Positions 187-6,480 of a stretch of DNA of 6,480 bases are shown piece after piece. The first letter of the stretch is position 1. Each line of letters opens with the position of its first letter. The notes beneath the pieces are model-generated. The model was not told where the DNA came from and did not search any database. It was given only the letters and a program-made list of their open reading frames with translations. Made by a program: the position numbers and the translations under genes. Source of the DNA: a virus (taxonomy: Duplodnaviria; Heunggongvirae; Uroviricota; Caudoviricetes); IMG/VR virus record IMGVR_UViG_2537561716_000021; one strand, written 5' to 3'.

Positions 187-2265
187 TTATTCCTCTGGGT
201 AAGCTGAGCTAATCAAGGTATCTTCCTGCATACGATTAATATGTGATGTTGTCCTTTCATCAATAACTTTCCCATCAAGTACCGTCTGAGTTGTGATATT
301 GATTGTCTGAGGCTGAATATTTACTGACGGCTTGATAAGCTTTAAATCTTGTGTGAATGTTTCCACTCGACCTTTCAGATTATTTAATGCTTCAGGTGAA
401 AACTGTGGAACATCTTTTGATTTGCCCTGAACCATAGCCCATAAAACAGTGGCTAAAGAGTTCATGTCACCAGTTAATGCTTGGTCTGTGGGTTCCACCT
501 TTGACCTTACAACTTTATCAATTGGATTATCTGACTTACTCATCTGACGTTCACAGAACGGTTTGACAATGGCATTAATCACATCAGTTGCCATACCGAC
601 AATCATTACTTTGGTAATTGCATCAGCTACAGATAGCCTACTTTTTCCACCTTCAACACTACCAGTAGAACGTGAATTGATTCTTCCTGCTGCTGTATTT
701 GCCACATTTCCAAGCGTGGAAATGGCCCTAATTAAGTTCCAGATACCACCTACAGCACCAATCCCAGACCTTACAGCGACTATACCAGCAAGCCCCTTTA
801 ATGCACTTAACAGGCCATTTGCAAGACCATCAGCTACAGCTTTTTGAGTGTCATTTAATTCTCTGTAAGCAAGGGTCACTCTGTCAAAGAATCCCTGCAC
901 TCGGTAGCTAATCGTGGTTAAGTCATCAATACCGTTTGACATGCTTTTCATCAGGTCGCCAAAATGTTCACCAAGATTTTTAGATTGACCACCCAGTGAA
1001 TTAAGTAAATTAGTCAGTGACCTTGTAAAGTCTGTTAAACCTTCCTGTGAACCGTCGAACATTAAGGCCAAATTATTATTCCATGAATTACTTAAGCGGC
1101 CTAACTGCGTCTGAGTAGAGTTAATAATCTTTTCCCATCCCCCAGCTTTAGCAATCATATTACCCATTTCAGCGGATACTTTAGGAAGAACATCTTTAGA
1201 AAGAACTTTACCGTTCTTCATAGCTGCATCTAATTGCTCGGTAGTCATCCCAAGACTTCTGGCAAATAACTGAAAAGCACCTGCCATTCTGTCCCCTAAC
1301 TGACCGCGTAATTCTTCAGCTTGAATCTTGCCCTTGCTCGCCATCTGCTCAAAAGCTTTTAAAATCCCGTTAATTTCATCGGTGCTTAAACCCATTAATC
1401 TGGATGTACCAATCACATTAGAAAATAAGGATTCTTTCTGGCCTGTATCCATATCACCAGCACCAGCGGAAAACTTAGCAAAACTGCTTAATGTTTCAAT
1501 CTGGTCAACACCAGTATTATTAGCAAGATTCTTAACAAATTCTGTAGCTCGTTTAGCACCTTCATCACCTAAAACGAATTGTGCCGCTCGTTGTGATGCT
1601 TCTTTTTTCAGACCAATCTCCATAATCTTCCTATAAGCTTCTAAGGCTGTCTGAAAACTATAAATGGCTGTACCTGCTTTGATTGCACTTGTAGCTAATA
1701 CATCCAGACCATTCGAAGCCTTTTCACTGTGATTGTTTTTGCTGGTGGTCTTGTTAAACTTAGAAAGTGTTTCACGTAGATTTTGATTTAACTTTGCTAA
1801 CTCACGATTAAAAGCTTCGTTTCCAAGTGTCTTGGATTTACTACTTAATGCGTAAAACTGACTCTTAATGTATTTCTCGACAATTGGGTTAAGACCTTTC
1901 AGCTTGGTCATATTCGCTGAATAAGCTGCTGTGATTGCTCTGTTGCCGCTAATTCGTGGCTGTCTTGATTGTTTTGGAGGATTAACAGTGTCATTAAATC
2001 TGGTGGCAAACTGAAATGCTTTTGTGCTTCTTGCTCTCTGTTCAATCTTGTCAAAGGCCTTATTAAACTTCCTTTCAAGCTGCCCTAAAGAAGCCGTTAA
2101 ATTGCTATCAAGCTGCTTTGTATTAATCCTGAAACCTTTATTTAGGTTCTTTTCAATTCTTTGTGCTGACTGCAAAGCTGCCTTTTCAACTCTTTGCAAG
2201 CCCTTAATAACGTTCTCGCTGAAGCCTAGCTCAACGATAAAACTATCAACTGTGAATTTGCTCAT
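187..2265 (-). CDS. phage tail tape measure protein (tape-measure domain family)
   Basis: 692-aa ORF from the track. ATG at 2265..2263 with GAGGTGA 9 nt upstream. Internal stretch KAFEQMASKGKIQAEELRGQLGDRMAGAFQLFARSLGMTTEQLDAAMKNGKV matches the conserved tape-measure domain motif as I recall it. Gly/Ala-rich hydrophobic segment GLANGLLSALKGLAGIVAVRSGIGAVGGIW and helical, K/E/Q-rich N-terminal third are typical of this family. Not verified by search. Confidence 0.75.
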   Translation of the reverse strand: MSKFTVDSFIVELGFSENVIKGLQRVEKAALQSAQRIEKNLNKGFRINTKQLDSNLTASLGQLERKFNKAFDKIEQRARSTKAFQFATRFNDTVNPPKQSRQPRISGNRAITAAYSANMTKLKGLNPIVEKYIKSQFYALSSKSKTLGNEAFNRELAKLNQNLRETLSKFNKTTSKNNHSEKASNGLDVLATSAIKAGTAIYSFQTALEAYRKIMEIGLKKEASQRAAQFVLGDEGAKRATEFVKNLANNTGVDQIETLSSFAKFSAGAGDMDTGQKESLFSNVIGTSRLMGLSTDEINGILKAFEQMASKGKIQAEELRGQLGDRMAGAFQLFARSLGMTTEQLDAAMKNGKVLSKDVLPKVSAEMGNMIAKAGGWEKIINSTQTQLGRLSNSWNNNLALMFDGSQEGLTDFTRSLTNLLNSLGGQSKNLGEHFGDLMKSMSNGIDDLTTISYRVQGFFDRVTLAYRELNDTQKAVADGLANGLLSALKGLAGIVAVRSGIGAVGGIWNLIRAISTLGNVANTAAGRINSRSTGSVEGGKSRLSVADAITKVMIVGMATDVINAIVKPFCERQMSKSDNPIDKVVRSKVEPTDQALTGDMNSLATVLWAMVQGKSKDVPQFSPEALNNLKGRVETFTQDLKLIKPSVNIQPQTINITTQTVLDGKVIDERTTSHINRMQEDTLISSAYPEE

Positions 2266-2277
2266 TCATATTTTTCA

Positions 2278-2317
2278 CCTCATAGACTTCGGATAGAAGG
2301 CTATCCTCATATACAAA
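2278..2317. repeat. ~36-bp hairpin-containing repeat, copy A (just upstream of the tape-measure gene start)
   Basis: ATAGACTTCGGATAGAAGGCTATCCTCATATA at 2282-2313 contains the hairpin GGATAG-aagg-CTATCC (2291-2306). Matches copy B with one mismatch in the loop, and flanking bases are also similar. Confidence 0.85.
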
Positions 2318-2357
2318 AAAGGAGAGTTACCCAGATTGCCATCCAGATAATCTCTCC
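2314..2357 (-). terminator. possible intrinsic terminator between the 72-aa gene and the tape-measure gene
   Basis: On the minus strand GGAGAG (2357..2352) and CTCTCC (2326..2321) form a 6-bp stem followed directly by TTTTTTG (2320..2314). The 25-nt loop is long for a classic terminator. Confidence 0.3.
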
Positions 2358-2373
2358 CGTAGATTTTTACTAA

Positions 2374-2592
2374 CTAACCAACAACTGATACCCAATGATA
2401 ATCACCATCTTCACGAATAATTCTTGAACCAACCGGAATACGGTCAATGCACCACGAAGGAATTTTGCGAATCTTTATTTTGCTGTTTGAGGTGACAGGC
2501 TGATGCTTACTCTTTACCGTTTTTGGTTTACGTGGTTGGTTTTTAAGTTTTTCACAAACTGCCTTGATAGTCTCTAAACGTTCTTCAAACAT
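2374..2592 (-). CDS. hypothetical small basic protein (72 aa)
   Basis: ORF from track. ATG preceded by AGAGGTGA. Starts 22 nt downstream of the 236-aa gene stop, so probably co-transcribed. Lys/Arg-rich N-terminal half. No recognisable motif. Confidence 0.5.
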   Translation of the reverse strand: MFEERLETIKAVCEKLKNQPRKPKTVKSKHQPVTSNSKIKIRKIPSWCIDRIPVGSRIIREDGDYHWVSVVG

Positions 2593-2614
2593 TAATCACC
2601 TCTTTAATTCATAA

Positions 2615-3325
2615 TCAAACAGCCTTGCTATACTTCTGAGAAATCTTCGTTAACTGCTCAATATCAGCCATTAAAGCAATCTTCTTCTGCGACTCATATT
2701 CACTAACAAGCTCTTTCATGCTATCAAGTTCTTTTCTAAGTTTTTGCTTTAACTTATCCAGTTTATCGGAGTAATGCTTAGTCAAATTAGCTTCAGCTAA
2801 CTGAAGAATCTCTTCATCTGTTTTACCAGTCATCAGAATAAATTGACCAGAACCCCTTAATGCTTGTCTGACATCAATTAACCGGAACCCTTCAGGGATA
2901 CTTTGAAGAACTTTAGGAACGTCTTCAATCGCTGTACCAAAACCATCATTAAAGTTTCCTTCATAATAGATAAACGGGTTTGACTTAATCTCGTAAGCAA
3001 TATCATATTCTGAAGGTTTCGAGGTTTCTTCGAAGTTCTTAACAGCATCGTAAGCAATATCAAGTCGAATACGTTGTTCTTTCAGCTGTGGGTAATATTT
3101 CTTTTCAAGCTCAAGTAATGCTTCACCCTTGCAAATATCAGGCATCTCTTGAGGTTCAGGAGCCACAAAGATGGTTGTTTTTGGTGACATCTTTAACTCT
3201 TGCTCAAGTGCAATTCTTTCATCGTGTTCTTTACGCTGAATAGCGATAGCTGGATGTTCAGTCTGTGGTGACCAGTCACCGAAGCTGTCAACCTTTTTAC
3301 CGTTAATATATAAATCGTTTGTCAT
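2615..3325 (-). CDS. hypothetical protein (236 aa) with Lys/Glu-rich, probably coiled-coil C-terminus
   Basis: Track ORF 2615..3370 begins at a GTG (3370..3368) with no ribosome-binding site. The internal ATG at 3325..3323 is preceded by GAAGAGGG at good spacing, so the start is trimmed to 3325. C-terminal ~60 residues (DKLDKLKQKLRKELDSMKELVSEYESQKK) look coiled-coil. No family recognised. Confidence 0.6.
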   Translation of the reverse strand: MTNDLYINGKKVDSFGDWSPQTEHPAIAIQRKEHDERIALEQELKMSPKTTIFVAPEPQEMPDICKGEALLELEKKYYPQLKEQRIRLDIAYDAVKNFEETSKPSEYDIAYEIKSNPFIYYEGNFNDGFGTAIEDVPKVLQSIPEGFRLIDVRQALRGSGQFILMTGKTDEEILQLAEANLTKHYSDKLDKLKQKLRKELDSMKELVSEYESQKKIALMADIEQLTKISQKYSKAV

Positions 3326-3347
3326 TGTTTTTCCCTCTTCTAAGTAA

Positions 3348-3437
3348 TATTCAGTTTTTAAAAAGCACACCTGACAGCCTACGAACTTAGAAGAGACTTA
3401 AAAGCGTTTGCCAAGTGTGCTTTTTAAAAACTGAATA
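3348..3437. repeat. perfect 23-bp inverted repeat (TATTCAGTTTTTAAAAAGCACAC) with 44-bp spacer
   Basis: Arms at 3348-3370 and 3415-3437 are exact reverse complements. Each arm contains TTTTTAAAAA. The left arm ends 22 nt upstream of the ATG at 3325 (minus-strand sense). Confidence 0.9.
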
Positions 3438-3530
3438 GCCCTAGATAATTTCTTATAAAGGGCCATTCATAAGGTGAAGAAATTAAAAGAACATCTAAAG
3501 GATTCAAATGAATGAACAAAGATTTTTGAT

Positions 3531-3562
3531 ATGGCCTATTTAGTGTGGGCTAAATAAGCCAT
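3531..3562. repeat. 13-bp near-perfect inverted repeat ATGGCCTATTTAG / CTAAATAAGCCAT with 6-nt loop
   Basis: Arms 3531-3543 and 3550-3562 with one mismatch. No adjacent T-run on either strand, so not a classic terminator. Confidence 0.7.
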
Positions 3563-3643
3563 GACGAAAAGCATTGCACCTTTCAGAATAACTATCCCTA
3601 GATGTAGATGGAATTGTTGAAAGAAATAAGAGAGAATTGCTCT

Positions 3644-3685
3644 CCCTATAGACTTCGGATAGAAGACTATCCTCATATATACAAT
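3644..3685. repeat. ~36-bp hairpin-containing repeat, copy B (in the long intergenic region)
   Basis: ATAGACTTCGGATAGAAGACTATCCTCATATA at 3648-3679 with hairpin GGATAG-aaga-CTATCC (3657-3672). Immediately preceded by the small hairpin GAGAG-aattg-CTCTC. Confidence 0.85.
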
Positions 3686-3736
3686 TATGTCATGCTCAAG
3701 GTTATTTGTCAACAGCTTTTTAACAGATTGGTAACA

Positions 3737-3814
3737 TCAATTCTTATTTACCGTATTACCTACCCAGCAACCAACCAATAAGCCAAGCAACGTCCAAGCA
3801 ATTATTAAACCCAT
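3737..3814 (-). CDS. possible 25-aa hydrophobic peptide (MGLIIAWTLLGLLVGCWVGNTVNKN), speculative
   Basis: ATG at 3814..3812 overlaps the TAA stop of the 109-aa gene (TAATG coupling). Hydrophobic stretch ends in a lipobox-like L-V-G-C. Below the track length threshold, and the N-region has no positive charge. Confidence 0.2.
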   Translation of the reverse strand: MGLIIAWTLLGLLVGCWVGNTVNKN

Positions 3815-4143
3815 TAGTGAATCCTCATAGAATCCGCAACCAAAACATTGTCAGCGTACAAAATTGTCACAGCACCTTTCAGAAATTGCTCTGGGCTGAC
3901 ACTAAGTTTGTTTGTCTGTTCGATAATCAATCTTTTCATGTTGCTGTCTTTAATTGGTAGCATCATTCGAGGCTCGTTAAACTCCACCGACTGAATAAAG
4001 TCAGAGATGTTTTCTGCATTATCAGCCATCAAAGCTAACAGCCGGTCAAAGTCAATGCTAATACCTGCATCAGTGAAGTGTTGAAGCATGGTCACTGTGT
4101 CGATATCAAGCATAATTTGTAATGGGAAGTTTAATTCTCTCAT
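3814..4143 (-). CDS. hypothetical acidic protein (109 aa)
   Basis: ORF from track. ATG at 4143 with AAGGAG upstream. Lies immediately downstream (minus-strand sense) of repeat copy 1. No motif recognised. Confidence 0.55.
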   Translation of the reverse strand: MRELNFPLQIMLDIDTVTMLQHFTDAGISIDFDRLLALMADNAENISDFIQSVEFNEPRMMLPIKDSNMKRLIIEQTNKLSVSPEQFLKGAVTILYADNVLVADSMRIH

Positions 4144-4173
4144 TTCTTAAAATCTCCTTTTTACCAGACCTCC

Positions 4174-4291
4174 TCAATCGCTCTGTAACGAGCTAAACAG
4201 TCTTTTTCAGGGGTAGCCTGTACAGTGGTATTACCCACCCTAAAATAGGGTAGTTTTTTGCGTTAGAATGCGATTGAGAGCGTCTGAGAAG
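4174..4291. repeat. bipartite intergenic repeat, copy 1
   Basis: Left flank TCAATCGCTCTGTAACGAG (4174-4192) and right flank AGAATGCGATTGAGAGCGTCT (4265-4285) are identical to copy 2. The 72-nt core is divergent and holds the hairpin ACCCTA-aaa-TAGGGT (4237-4251) followed by T6 (4254-4259). Confidence 0.85.
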
Positions 4292-4299
4292 CTGTTTTT

Positions 4300-4587
4300 C
4301 TAATTTCGCTTAAAGTCTCGGACTTGCATAAGGTTTTTTGGTCTGGTATCGGCTCTGTTACCATTTCGATGGATAATTTGCTTATTGGATTGATAGCCAT
4401 GATAAAGGAACCAGACAACATATTTCACATAGAATGTGTATCGACCTATATTAAATGTTTTGTTGCCGTAGTCGTCGGTATTTATCGTGACTGACTCCCC
4501 ATCAGACCAGCACAGGGAATCACTGGATTCATCATAGATAAGGTGTTCTGCAAAATATCTTCTAACATCTTCATGCCAAGGTTTCAT
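4300..4587 (-). CDS. HNH endonuclease (HNH_3 / homing-endonuclease-like, 95 aa)
   Basis: C-terminal IIHRNGNRADTRPKNLMQV fits the H-x-x-G-x-x-x-D-x-x-x-x-N-L HNH core. Preceding aromatic-rich block (YTFYVKYVVWFLYHGY) resembles the region upstream of the HNH motif in small phage HNH proteins. Strong GAGGAGG site. ATGA start/stop overlap with the upstream gene. Confidence 0.7.
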   Translation of the reverse strand: MKPWHEDVRRYFAEHLIYDESSDSLCWSDGESVTINTDDYGNKTFNIGRYTFYVKYVVWFLYHGYQSNKQIIHRNGNRADTRPKNLMQVRDFKRN

Positions 4588-5636: not shown

Positions 5637-5686
5637 TCATAAGCTGGCCCTTATAATTGTTAATTCTCTGTTAACTCATATATACA

Positions 5687-5715
5687 ATCCTAGCATTTTC
5701 AAAGGCTAATGTCAA
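5687..5715 (-). promoter_or_regulatory. candidate sigma70-type promoter for the 184/93/71/HNH operon
   Basis: Minus-strand TTGACA (5715..5710), 17-nt spacer, TAGGAT (5692..5687), about 50 nt upstream of the ATG at 5636. The -10 is weak. Confidence 0.4.
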
Positions 5716-5722
5716 GTATTTT

Positions 5723-5752
5723 TTAACATTTTATTAACATCTGTGGTATAAT
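5723..5752 (+). promoter_or_regulatory. candidate rightward promoter with extended -10 (TTAACA, 18 nt, TGgTATAAT)
   Basis: TTAACA at 5723-5728. TG at 5744-5745 followed by TATAAT at 5747-5752. Divergent from the operon promoter. Would transcribe repeat copy 2 and the small ORF at 5934. Confidence 0.5.
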
Positions 5753-5830
5753 GGGTTTATGGGGAGAGTAAAATATAAAGGCGTGGCCATGTATTTGGTC
5801 ACATGGTTATTGCATTGCACACAGACATCT

Positions 5831-5925
5831 TCAATCGCTCTGTAACGAGTTAAATGGCCTCTTCAGGTCAACTATAAGGTCAGGTACTTTTTTGTGTCAG
5901 AATGCGATTGAGAGCGTCTTACAAG
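5831..5925. repeat. bipartite intergenic repeat, copy 2
   Basis: Left flank 5831-5849 and right flank 5899-5919 are identical to copy 1. The 49-nt core is different but also ends in T6 (5888-5893). Confidence 0.85.
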
Positions 5926-6110: not shown

Positions 6111-6142
6111 AATCCCTCCAAAACCCCCTGTACGAGATGGTA

Positions 6143-6480
6143 TGAACCGCCCCGGGTTTCCTGGAGAGTGTTTTATCTGTGAACTCAGGCTGCCAGATCA
6201 TCGTTTCCGATGGAAGCATAATAAGCTTTTTCTGCTTCTGCCGGAGGAGTATGGCCCAGCCTTCCCAGCAATCGTCGATTGTTATCCCAGTCCACCCACG
6301 TTAGTGTGGCCAGTTCCACTTCTGCCGGTTTTTCCAGCTCTTACGGTGTATTACCTCCGCTTTGTAAAGACCATTGATGCTCTCGCCATCGCGTTGTCAC
6401 GAGTCGCCTGTACTCCCTGTTGATGCCAGTAATCCGGCTTCTTTTAGTCGCTCCGTATAGGCCAGTGACACATACTGAGA
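6143..6480 (-). mobile_element. IS3-family insertion sequence, terminal part (IS629/IS1203-like as recalled), continuing past the window edge
   Basis: Terminal sequence TGAACCGCCCCGGGTTTCCTGGAGAG starts at 6143 and matches the IS629-group terminal inverted repeat as I remember it. Minus-strand translation from the window edge reads SQYVSLAYTERLKEAGLLASTGSTGDS and later ESINGLYKAEVIHRKSWKNR and AEVELATLTWVDW...GHTPPAEAEKAYYASIGNDDLAA, a DDE transposase OrfB C-terminus. Composition is visibly GC-richer than the rest. Confidence 0.7.
6185..6480 (-). pseudogene. IS3-family transposase OrfB, C-terminal portion, disrupted
   Basis: In the frame that encodes SQYVSLAYTERLKEAGLLASTGSTGDS there is an in-frame TGA at 6399..6397, exactly where the conserved YDNA motif should be. 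The conserved C-terminal tail is then in a different frame (shift near 6322-6327) and ends at TGA 6187..6185. Hand-translated. Confidence 0.5.

Follow-up and report, generated by a model that had tools for sequence, protein, structure and literature searches.

A covarying hairpin repeat shared by an Escherichia coli island and the non-coding region of Felix O1-like phages

The 6,480-nt stretch of viral DNA analyzed here (IMG/VR record IMGVR_UViG_2537561716_000021, at its full length referred to as the window) contains two copies of a small hairpin cassette, one directly before the gene for the tape-measure protein (TMP) and one in a long intergenic region. We find that this cassette is a small, apparently undescribed hairpin repeat whose relatives occur both in an Escherichia coli island, of which the window is a part, and in the large non-coding region (NCR) of virulent Felix O1-like phages. 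Our favored reading, held tentatively, is that the cassette resembles a repetitive extragenic palindrome (REP), is recognized as folded single-stranded nucleic acid and is tied to the replication or packaging of a helper phage.

A 32-nt pattern matches the window exactly twice, at positions 2282–2313 (copy 1, or site 1b) and 3648–3679 (copy 2, or site 2), both on the + strand as written; the cassettes themselves are assigned to the minus strand, which carries every gene of the window. The two copies agree at 31 of 32 bases, the lone mismatch (G/A) falling at one loop position, and none of 200 shuffles gave a match. These results bear out an earlier reading of this DNA made from its letters alone (the sequence-only reading), which had described a near-identical hairpin repeat at two sites with its sole core difference in the loop. 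A repeat search stretches the pair to 49 nt at 84% identity. Read on the coding (minus) strand, the element is 5'-GTATATGAGGATAG(C/T)CTTCTATCCGAAGTCTAT-3'. The hairpin of copy 1 consists of GGATAG (2291–2296), the loop AAGG (2297–2300) and CTATCC (2301–2306), and that of copy 2 of GGATAG (3657–3662), AAGA (3663–3666) and CTATCC (3667–3672). Copy 1 lies between the T-run of a terminator and the TMP ribosome-binding site (RBS), and it ends directly at the TMP Shine-Dalgarno sequence GAGGTG (2281–2276), which together with the ATG (2265–2263) makes up the TMP start region (2265–2281, minus). Copy 2 begins at approximately position +1 of the transcript from a promoter that we term P236.

A chance resemblance, or a local duplication restricted to this strain, has next to no probability as an explanation of the pair. 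There are just two copies in the window and the folding energy of the small hairpin alone is ordinary (z = -1.0 to -1.6), but the shuffles gave no match and the motif recurs widely: its variant A is present in 136 of 5426 E. coli genomes (variant C in 114), 48 metagenome island contigs carry it, 67 of the 120 metagenome matches having unrelated flanks and looking like chance, and it occurs in 88 phage records. The significance of the element stems from the repeat and comparative data, not from its folding energy.

Each copy is adjoined by a GAGAG/CTCTC hairpin, at 2321–2358 and 3629–3646, and these lie on opposite sides of the two copies, as had also been noticed from the sequence. The first is the stem of an intrinsic terminator that follows the gene for a 72-aa protein (2315–2358, minus; GGGAGAG...CTCTCC at 2358–2321, then TTTTTT at 2320–2315) and stands upstream of copy 1 in the direction of transcription. 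The 105-nt segment that includes it (2268–2372) folds with a minimum free energy of -29.7 kcal/mol (z = -2.8), and the stem is preserved through different sequence (GGGGAG...CTCCCC) in two related loci, L004 and L013. The second is a 5'-leader hairpin with a T-rich tail (GGGAGAG-CAATT-CTCTCT; 3629–3646, minus) located downstream of copy 2. In relatives without the cassette this hairpin is the very start of the transcript; its stem changes compensatorily among relatives (GGAAG/CTTCC) and its loop is inverted in L007. The cassette is not itself an intrinsic terminator, having an A+T-rich stem with no T-run after it, and the terminator-like sites are the neighboring hairpins. Two other candidates within the cassette were set aside. 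A mini-open reading frame (AUG AGA UAG in most variants; MRIAFYPKSMR* in copy 1; a 46-codon frame in copy 2) was judged coincidental, given that it lacks a Shine-Dalgarno sequence, that its frame is not preserved and that the insert has a length not divisible by three. An alternative hairpin (CTTC-TATCC-GAAG, or ATAG...CTAT) is kept less well across the variants than the GATAG/CTATC stem.

The coding-strand consensus of the wider family is (T)ATGA, a hairpin that begins with G and ends with C (stem of 5–7 bp, loop of 2–5 nt), and GAAT(C), in a unit of ~27 nt. Because a plain MAFFT alignment of the variants was not structure-aware, we used a covariance model, built on ten equal-length members, with which 446 kb of loci were searched. 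There were 55 matches, 34 of them distinct, a few weak ones probably being due to chance. In the 34-member alignment 99.1% of cells are paired, a percentage that is partly circular as the alignment was fitted to the model, and five of the seven pairs have changed on both sides. None of 500 shuffles covaried as well, and sliding the partner by 1–3 columns lowered pairing to 10–58%. The stem pairs include GATAG/CTATC, GGATAG/CTATCC, GGTAG/CTACC, GGATAA/TTATCC, GGATG/CATCC, GGTTTAT/ATAAACC, GTCTAAC/GTTAGAT and GGTAT/ATACC. Since the loop is free in both length and sequence while the stems covary, a folded single strand is a better fit than a dimer-binding site in duplex DNA, which is unlikely. 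Searches of the window, the phage NCR and the island L015 against Rfam 15 gave no relevant match at E <= 1; the only entries listed were unrelated and far below their gathering scores (MIR9563, 20.7 bits, E = 0.87; snoRNA sn2343, 20.3 bits, E = 0.52). There are no CRISPR-like arrays, the copy spacings of ~60–80 nt or ~1.4 kb reflecting fixed sites, and to our knowledge the cassette is not identical to any known CRISPR repeat.

With a relaxed pattern, at least eight island sites are occupied. Besides sites 1b and 2 these include site 1a, between the 72-aa gene and its terminator (filled in 114 genomes), and L011 has one copy on either side of this terminator before TMP. A copy at L015:12231 lies upstream of an AP2/HNH gene, those at L002:23628, L008:1635 and L015:10484 are in 5' leaders downstream of promoters, and those at L015:13166, L015:13966, L003:28372 and L006:1611 are close to the island's right end; one at L069:2159 is in the loop of the GAGAG hairpin. 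Another is a 27-nt insert in reverse orientation within a 60-nt palindromic element, flanked by a direct repeat of 1 nt. Copies thus adjoin or occupy existing hairpins, namely terminators, the leader hairpin, the 60-nt palindrome and even another cassette's loop. Of 123 island copies, 104 are oriented like the main operon, and most of the 19 opposite ones lie upstream of oppositely oriented genes. The 60-nt element is a second cassette, with 13-bp terminal inverted repeats (GTGCTACGTGAAA...TTTTACGTAGCTCAC). In the window it is located at 39–99, between TMP and the baseplate gene, and in L003, L005, L007–L009, L012 and L014 it stands between the terminator and the TMP RBS; in relatives it sometimes adjoins, or is interrupted by, the hairpin cassette.

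Occupancy of the sites varies among close relatives. Six relatives were retrieved without reference to the motif (L002, L003 and L006–L009): site 2 is filled in none of these, and a copy precedes the TMP RBS in one. Relatives are 87–89% identical overall and the motif is missing from them as a clean indel of 27–29 nt. At site 2 the window reads ...TGTATATAT, then the insert GAGGATAGTCTTCTATCCGAAGTCTAT and then AGGGAGAG, where the empty L006 reads ...TGTATATATAGGGAGAG; relative to L006, L002 and L003, copy 2 is an insertion of 27 nt. Before TMP, L004 reads TTTTTTGTAT, the insert ATGAGGATAGCCTTCTATCCGAAGTCTAT and GAGGTG, where L013 is empty (TTTTTTGTATGAGGTG), and a metagenome allele reads GTATATGA, the insert GGATAGCCTTCTATCCGAAGTCTATGA and ACACTTAA, where L002 is empty (GTATATGAACACTTAA) and the direct repeat is TATGA. 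Copy 1 of the window is likewise an optional insertion of 27–29 nt when compared with L002, L013 and a metagenome allele. Filling of the two sites is independent: L004 has the TMP copy only, and L005 a canonical copy at site 2 only. In general the cassettes have sharp boundaries with flanking direct repeats of 1–8 nt (TAT, CTAT, TATGA and similar). In E. coli the motif reaches at most two copies per genome and is never on plasmids, and a scan of genome contigs with the strict pattern, one representative per species, gave no match. Because the motif is absent from one or both sites in close relatives, expression of TMP cannot depend on it.

Such polymorphism might also arise if the hairpin were not mobile, that is, if an ancestral functional site (e.g., an origin or packaging hairpin) had once been present everywhere and palindromes were since deleted by slippage between direct repeats. 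This we consider quite unlikely. It is consistent with the short direct repeats (TAT, TATGA, CTAT) that flank most indels, with the stability of site-specific variants across genomes, with the partial deletion at site 2 of L014 and with an NCR-like patch of the O157 island that lost its hairpin imperfectly. However, the same 27-nt unit is present at no fewer than 13 unrelated sites in two kinds of genome, so that copying must have occurred at some time; a copy nests within the loop of another, the reverse-orientation insert has a flanking repeat of just 1 nt, and there are copies within terminator loops that are simple in other phages. The O157 patch (L001, 29,080–29,095) lacks the hairpin (AAAATATCTACA-CTCA-ATTGATGG), which is kept in L015 and in the phages; as the patch lost its hairpin and left TGAG behind, part of the polymorphism represents loss and not gain. 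In strain TUM9757 (L014, 4004–4035) the deletion at site 2 joins the cassette's 3' arm to the downstream hairpin's loop (...CTATCCG|CAATTTTTCC), removing the 3' flank of the cassette and the 5' arm of the leader hairpin.

Outside the islands, the pattern matches IMG/VR contigs of 87–91 kb. A blastn search of a phage collection identified the 88 records mentioned above, almost all of them Ounavirinae (Moogle, Mordin, SUSP2, KPS64 and many Felixounavirus). The whole Moogle genome has four bona fide copies, all of which are in a single 1.6-kb NCR (75,040–76,680) that is located between convergent gene blocks and is full of 11-bp-spaced repeats of the TTAACAAG type. The left copies are on the minus strand and the right copies on the plus strand, so that they point away from this iteron array. 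In other Ounavirinae the copies are likewise confined to the NCR with the same divergent orientation, with one exception. The Moogle region 75,000–76,700 (L040, 31,000–32,700) contains dozens of 11-bp-phased TTAACAAG/CTGTTAAG repeats and TATAGCCTCT-type repeats between two terminators, and it has no Rfam match and no annotated gene. We consider it likely that this NCR is an origin or terminal-repeat region. Its function was not described in the Felix O1 genome paper (PMC3185647), and terminal repeats of 581 bp have been reported for a Felixounavirus (PMC8303462).

Some phage copies are inside the loops of the terminators that bound the NCR (two such), e.g., AAAAAGCCCC, T, the insert ATGAGATAGATTCTATCGAATC and ...GGGGC. 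The Felix O1 terminator t23 is gcccctatttaaaggggc (Table 2, PMC3185647), and based on its resemblance and its position at the end of a transcription unit, in an unaligned comparison, it appears to be the unoccupied counterpart of the filled terminator. The Moogle copy at 76,559 holds within its loop a second member (ATGA-AGGTAA-CTCA-TTACCT-GAATCA), which a CTAT repeat flanks. How transcription passes the many terminators of Felix O1, or is timed, was described as unknown (PMC3185647). The link between islands and phages extends beyond the cassette. Between the island "baseplate" protein and Moogle gp65, whose gene is beside that of the phage TMP, identity is 69%, and the island TMP is 28% identical over its full length to Moogle gp66, with ~75% nucleotide identity in patches. 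In the right-hand non-coding part of an intact island, L015 13,095–13,300 aligns with the phage NCR, and a 25-nt identical core holds a GGTAG hairpin. With these similarities, its large serine recombinase, its small genes of unknown role and its long non-coding stretches, the island has the appearance of a satellite of strictly virulent Felix O1-like phages, or of a derivative of them. A literature search, which was not exhaustive, found no paper on an Ounavirinae satellite or on the cassette repeat.

The sequence-only reading had proposed that the repeat is a phage-specific promoter or operator that could uncouple TMP expression from the upstream genes. What stands of this proposal is a conserved cis element specific to a phage lineage; the part in which it drives or uncouples TMP as a promoter or operator does not, the element being optional and without a sigma-70 site. 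The motif search which that reading suggested found additional copies in related islands and phages, so that the motif is not restricted to this pair. The phage copies are confined to one non-coding region and absent upstream of Felix O1-like phage genes, which argues against a TMP promoter.

A sigma-70 consensus scan of positions 2150–4350 found no promoter within either copy on either strand. Directly upstream of copy 2 is the sigma-70-type promoter P236 (TTGACA-17-CATAAT, with TG; 3684–3712, minus), which has 11 of 12 matches and is invariant in the relatives. Copy 2 begins ~7 nt past its -10 hexamer, and from this geometry we infer that copy 2 forms the 5' end of the transcript of the gene for a 236-aa protein. 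Three 11-bp-spaced TGTT(A/G)A repeats (GATGTTACCAA, TCTGTTAAAAA and GCTGTTGACAA; 3706–3738, minus) accompany P236, the last being its -35 hexamer. A paralogous promoter, P184 (TTGACA-17-TAGGAT; 5687–5715, minus), is also preceded by 11-bp-spaced TGTTAA repeats (5709–5741, minus), of which the last one is again the -35 hexamer. By inspection only, the repeats at the two promoters resemble the iterons of the phage NCR. Both P236 and P184 are then followed by TGTATATATGAG, and the sharing of this sequence by P184 without a canonical cassette accounts for a third partial match at 5675–5688.

That the motif is a promoter or duplex operator, recruiting a phage-modified or phage-encoded polymerase or regulator and so giving TMP its own control, is very improbable. 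Copy 1 is placed suggestively for such a role, closely following a terminator and preceding TMP; the sequence of copy 2, ...GTCTATAGGGAGAG, resembles T7-type promoters; and the motif has dyad symmetry, which by inspection includes a MerR-like layout on the + strand (TAGACT-19 nt-CATATA, with the dyad centered in the spacer). However, the scan did not list this MerR-like candidate, which is not conserved. The T7-like string TATAGGGAGA is present only at copy 2, copy 1 reading TATGAGGTG in its place. Its GGGAGAG part is the pre-existing hairpin and empty alleles read ATATAGGGAGAG, so the string is a junction artefact. Moreover, Felix O1 encodes no RNA polymerase (PMC3185647). Most relatives are without the motif before TMP, and its phage copies are never upstream of phage genes. 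For a duplex operator, the loop of 2–5 nt (31 nt with the nested insert), the covarying half-sites, the asymmetric flanks and the optional occupancy do not suit a fixed site. Judged by these comparative data, the promoter or operator reading is largely refuted, and an essential promoter or operator of TMP is ruled out.

A regulatory hairpin at the RNA level, which would stabilize the 5' end of a transcript or bind a helper-phage or host factor controlling read-through or processing, is a more serious alternative, although we regard it as unlikely. Copy 2, which starts at ~+1 of a strong promoter, is followed by a hairpin that has a T-rich tail, the other leader copies are just downstream of promoters, copies flank the terminator before TMP in L011, and most island copies are co-oriented with local genes. 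On the motif strand G-U wobble pairs (~5) exceed A-C mismatches (~2). The UGA...GAA flanks could form tandem sheared G-A pairs plus A-U and U-A pairs, on the ATGA strand only, and one member has GTGA...GAAC, which would be compensatory for such pairing; we keep this K-turn-like reading as a suggestion and not as a result. An RNA role is less compatible with the lack of conservation of the element at any given site, with five loci in which a copy inside the 60-nt palindrome is antisense to local transcription, and with phage terminator-loop copies that run antisense to the transcript being terminated. Rfam gave no match, and the loop (ATT, GTT, ACT, TCT, TCTT, CCTT, TTC and others) is free, unlike that of boxB-type sites. 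Nor was a lambda-type nut site found, there being no boxA beside the cassettes; the boxA-like CGCTCTGTAAC belongs to another repeat family of the window.

This other family has two copies (4165–4291 and 5822–5925) of ~105–125 nt that are 83–88% identical and have internal inverted arms of 26 nt. It contains the boxA-like CAATCGCTCTGTAAC and a terminator-like hairpin at 4237–4258 (+ strand), and the copy at 5822 is downstream of a strong + strand promoter (5723–5752). The family could be a small RNA or a nut-like leader.

Returning to the folded, REP-like cassette, we envisage that it is selected as a folded single strand, either as single-stranded DNA on the lagging-strand template or as RNA, and would act neither as a duplex operator nor as a promoter. 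It may be copied into hairpin-proximal sites while the DNA is single-stranded, as expected of REP-type behavior, and be recognized by a factor acting on the phage NCR in replication or packaging. The home of the cassette, and probably its function, would be in this NCR, and the island copies would exploit or mimic that function or merely be carried along; the island also carries copied patches of phage NCR. Within the window the local effects would be only modulatory, with copy 2 serving as a 5'-terminal stem-loop of the P236 mRNA and copy 1 as extra structure between the terminator and the TMP RBS, and TMP expression depends on neither.

Several points weigh against this proposal. Its weakest aspect is that no candidate mobilizing enzyme was found among the island proteins, these having no transposase or HUH match in Pfam, NCBIfam or PHROG and the 236-aa "transposase" having neither an HUH motif nor a fold match. 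Copy number is low, up to ~6 per island and 3–5 per phage, and site-specific variants are inherited with their sites, so that movement is rare at best. At least one empty site, that of the O157 island (L001, ~29,088), has the look of a deletion with TGAG as its remnant. As ATGAG and GAA were required in the searches, the invariance of the flanks is, like the pairing percentage of the model-fitted alignment, partly circular. The co-orientation of most island copies with local transcription fits an RNA role equally well.

The name "transposase", widely given to the 236-aa protein by NCBI (2615–3325, minus), looks unsupported. The protein is without a Pfam, NCBIfam, PHROG or PDB match and has just 18 cluster representatives among 1.8 billion proteins. 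The protein is modeled (pLDDT 80) as a helical coiled coil that includes a small alpha/beta portion, a structure with no fold match. Without a family, an HUH motif or a fold match, it was rejected as the cognate enzyme of the cassette. A recombination site for a small serine recombinase or for the AP2/HNH proteins was rejected as well, there being copies in islands without these genes. A long inverted repeat (3348–3437; 29-nt arms, 93% complementary, 32-nt spacer) stops ~25 nt before the RBS of the 236-aa gene and is partly conserved in relatives.

Of 5426 complete E. coli genomes, 525 have a chromosomal match to the window, and in O157:H7 strains the match is at 100%. In strain E32511 the window is part of a ~13 kb island which is inserted in a DUF72 gene beside yecD; left of TMP, this island has genes for a "baseplate protein" and a large serine recombinase. 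In L001 the island spans 17641–30900. Related islands of 11–13 kb occupy other sites (wrbA/ymdF and tonB/yciI) with gene order unchanged. Based on its size and neighborhood, the island is probably SpLE2 of O157 Sakai, an element of 13,459 bp (table in PMC7430833). A protein-based locus search yielded few relatives, and the family is therefore essentially confined to Escherichia. Together with TMP (187–2265), the 72-aa gene (2374–2592) and the 236-aa gene, the minus strand of the window carries genes for a 109-aa protein (3814–4143), a small HNH endonuclease (4300–4587) and three more small proteins. The right end of the window (6140–6480) is the end of an insertion sequence, IS629/IS1203 (IS3 family), which truncates the non-coding region of the island in this strain; in other O157 strains the insertion sequence is located elsewhere in the island. 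Minus the IS629 part, the window has no near match among deposited phages or plasmids.

A bolder proposal is that SpLE2-type islands parasitize virulent Felix O1-like phages by means of the hairpins, the NCR-like patches and the TGTTAA repeats, and would thus be E. coli satellites comparable to the PLEs (elements like phage-inducible chromosomal islands) of Vibrio cholerae. The hairpins would then be single-strand priming, nicking or packaging signals for the helper machinery that spread in a REP-like manner. We consider this conceivable and rather doubtful.

For annotation of the window, these results remove a tempting but wrong call, a dedicated tape-measure promoter. Of greater interest than a local repeat are the shared cis elements that link a widespread E. 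coli island to Felix O1-like phages. If our reading is right, a structured repeat family ties a common uncharacterized E. coli island to a well-known group of virulent phages that serve in typing and biocontrol. It would offer a handle on the role of the large Felix O1-like NCR, in phages whose transcriptional and replication control has been described as unknown (PMC3185647), and on whether E. coli harbors satellites of strictly lytic phages. It would also add a second system, besides REPs and the REP-associated tyrosine transposases (RAYTs), in which sites close to hairpins receive copies of a tiny hairpin.

Four known systems invite comparison. The start-associated sequences and stoperators of mycobacteriophages are likewise short, phage-lineage-specific repeats near gene starts or promoters and oriented with transcription. 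Those, however, are conserved duplex motifs at many genes, whereas the cassette is a covarying hairpin with optional occupancy of every site and no copies in phage coding regions. Satellites that mimic cis sites of their helpers (PLEs with ICP1; the cos or pac sites of phage-inducible chromosomal islands and P4) share with our case a small island with a large serine recombinase, and here island sequences have homology to both structural and non-coding stretches of a myovirus that is strictly virulent. Unlike them, the island carries tail genes (TMP and its neighbor) and no recognizable capsid-remodeling or replication genes. In the oriV of plasmid RSF1010, the single-strand initiation (ssi) hairpins ssiA and ssiB flank an iteron origin and are recognized by the primase RepB'. 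The phage hairpins, with their conserved flanks, similarly lie on opposite strands around 11-bp-spaced iterons and point outwards. They differ in that there are several per side with one orientation exception, that extra copies occur in island operons and that the origin is here putative.

The closest likeness is to REPs and bacterial interspersed mosaic elements (BIMEs) with their RAYTs (HUH Y1), and to IS200/IS605-derived elements. No cognate HUH transposase was found for the cassette among the island proteins, its copy number is tiny, it is confined to the NCR of one phage lineage and one island family, its flanks are ATGA...GAAT, unlike the GTAG of REPs, and the short direct repeats at its borders are atypical for IS200/IS605. 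Set against these differences, the cassette is, like REPs, a short (~25–35 nt), extragenic, imperfect palindrome with a conserved single-stranded flank. Its copies are dispersed in both orientations near terminators and other hairpins, and its stem subfamilies covary. The phage copies also switch orientation across the putative origin, which is the pattern of top-strand, lagging-template elements.

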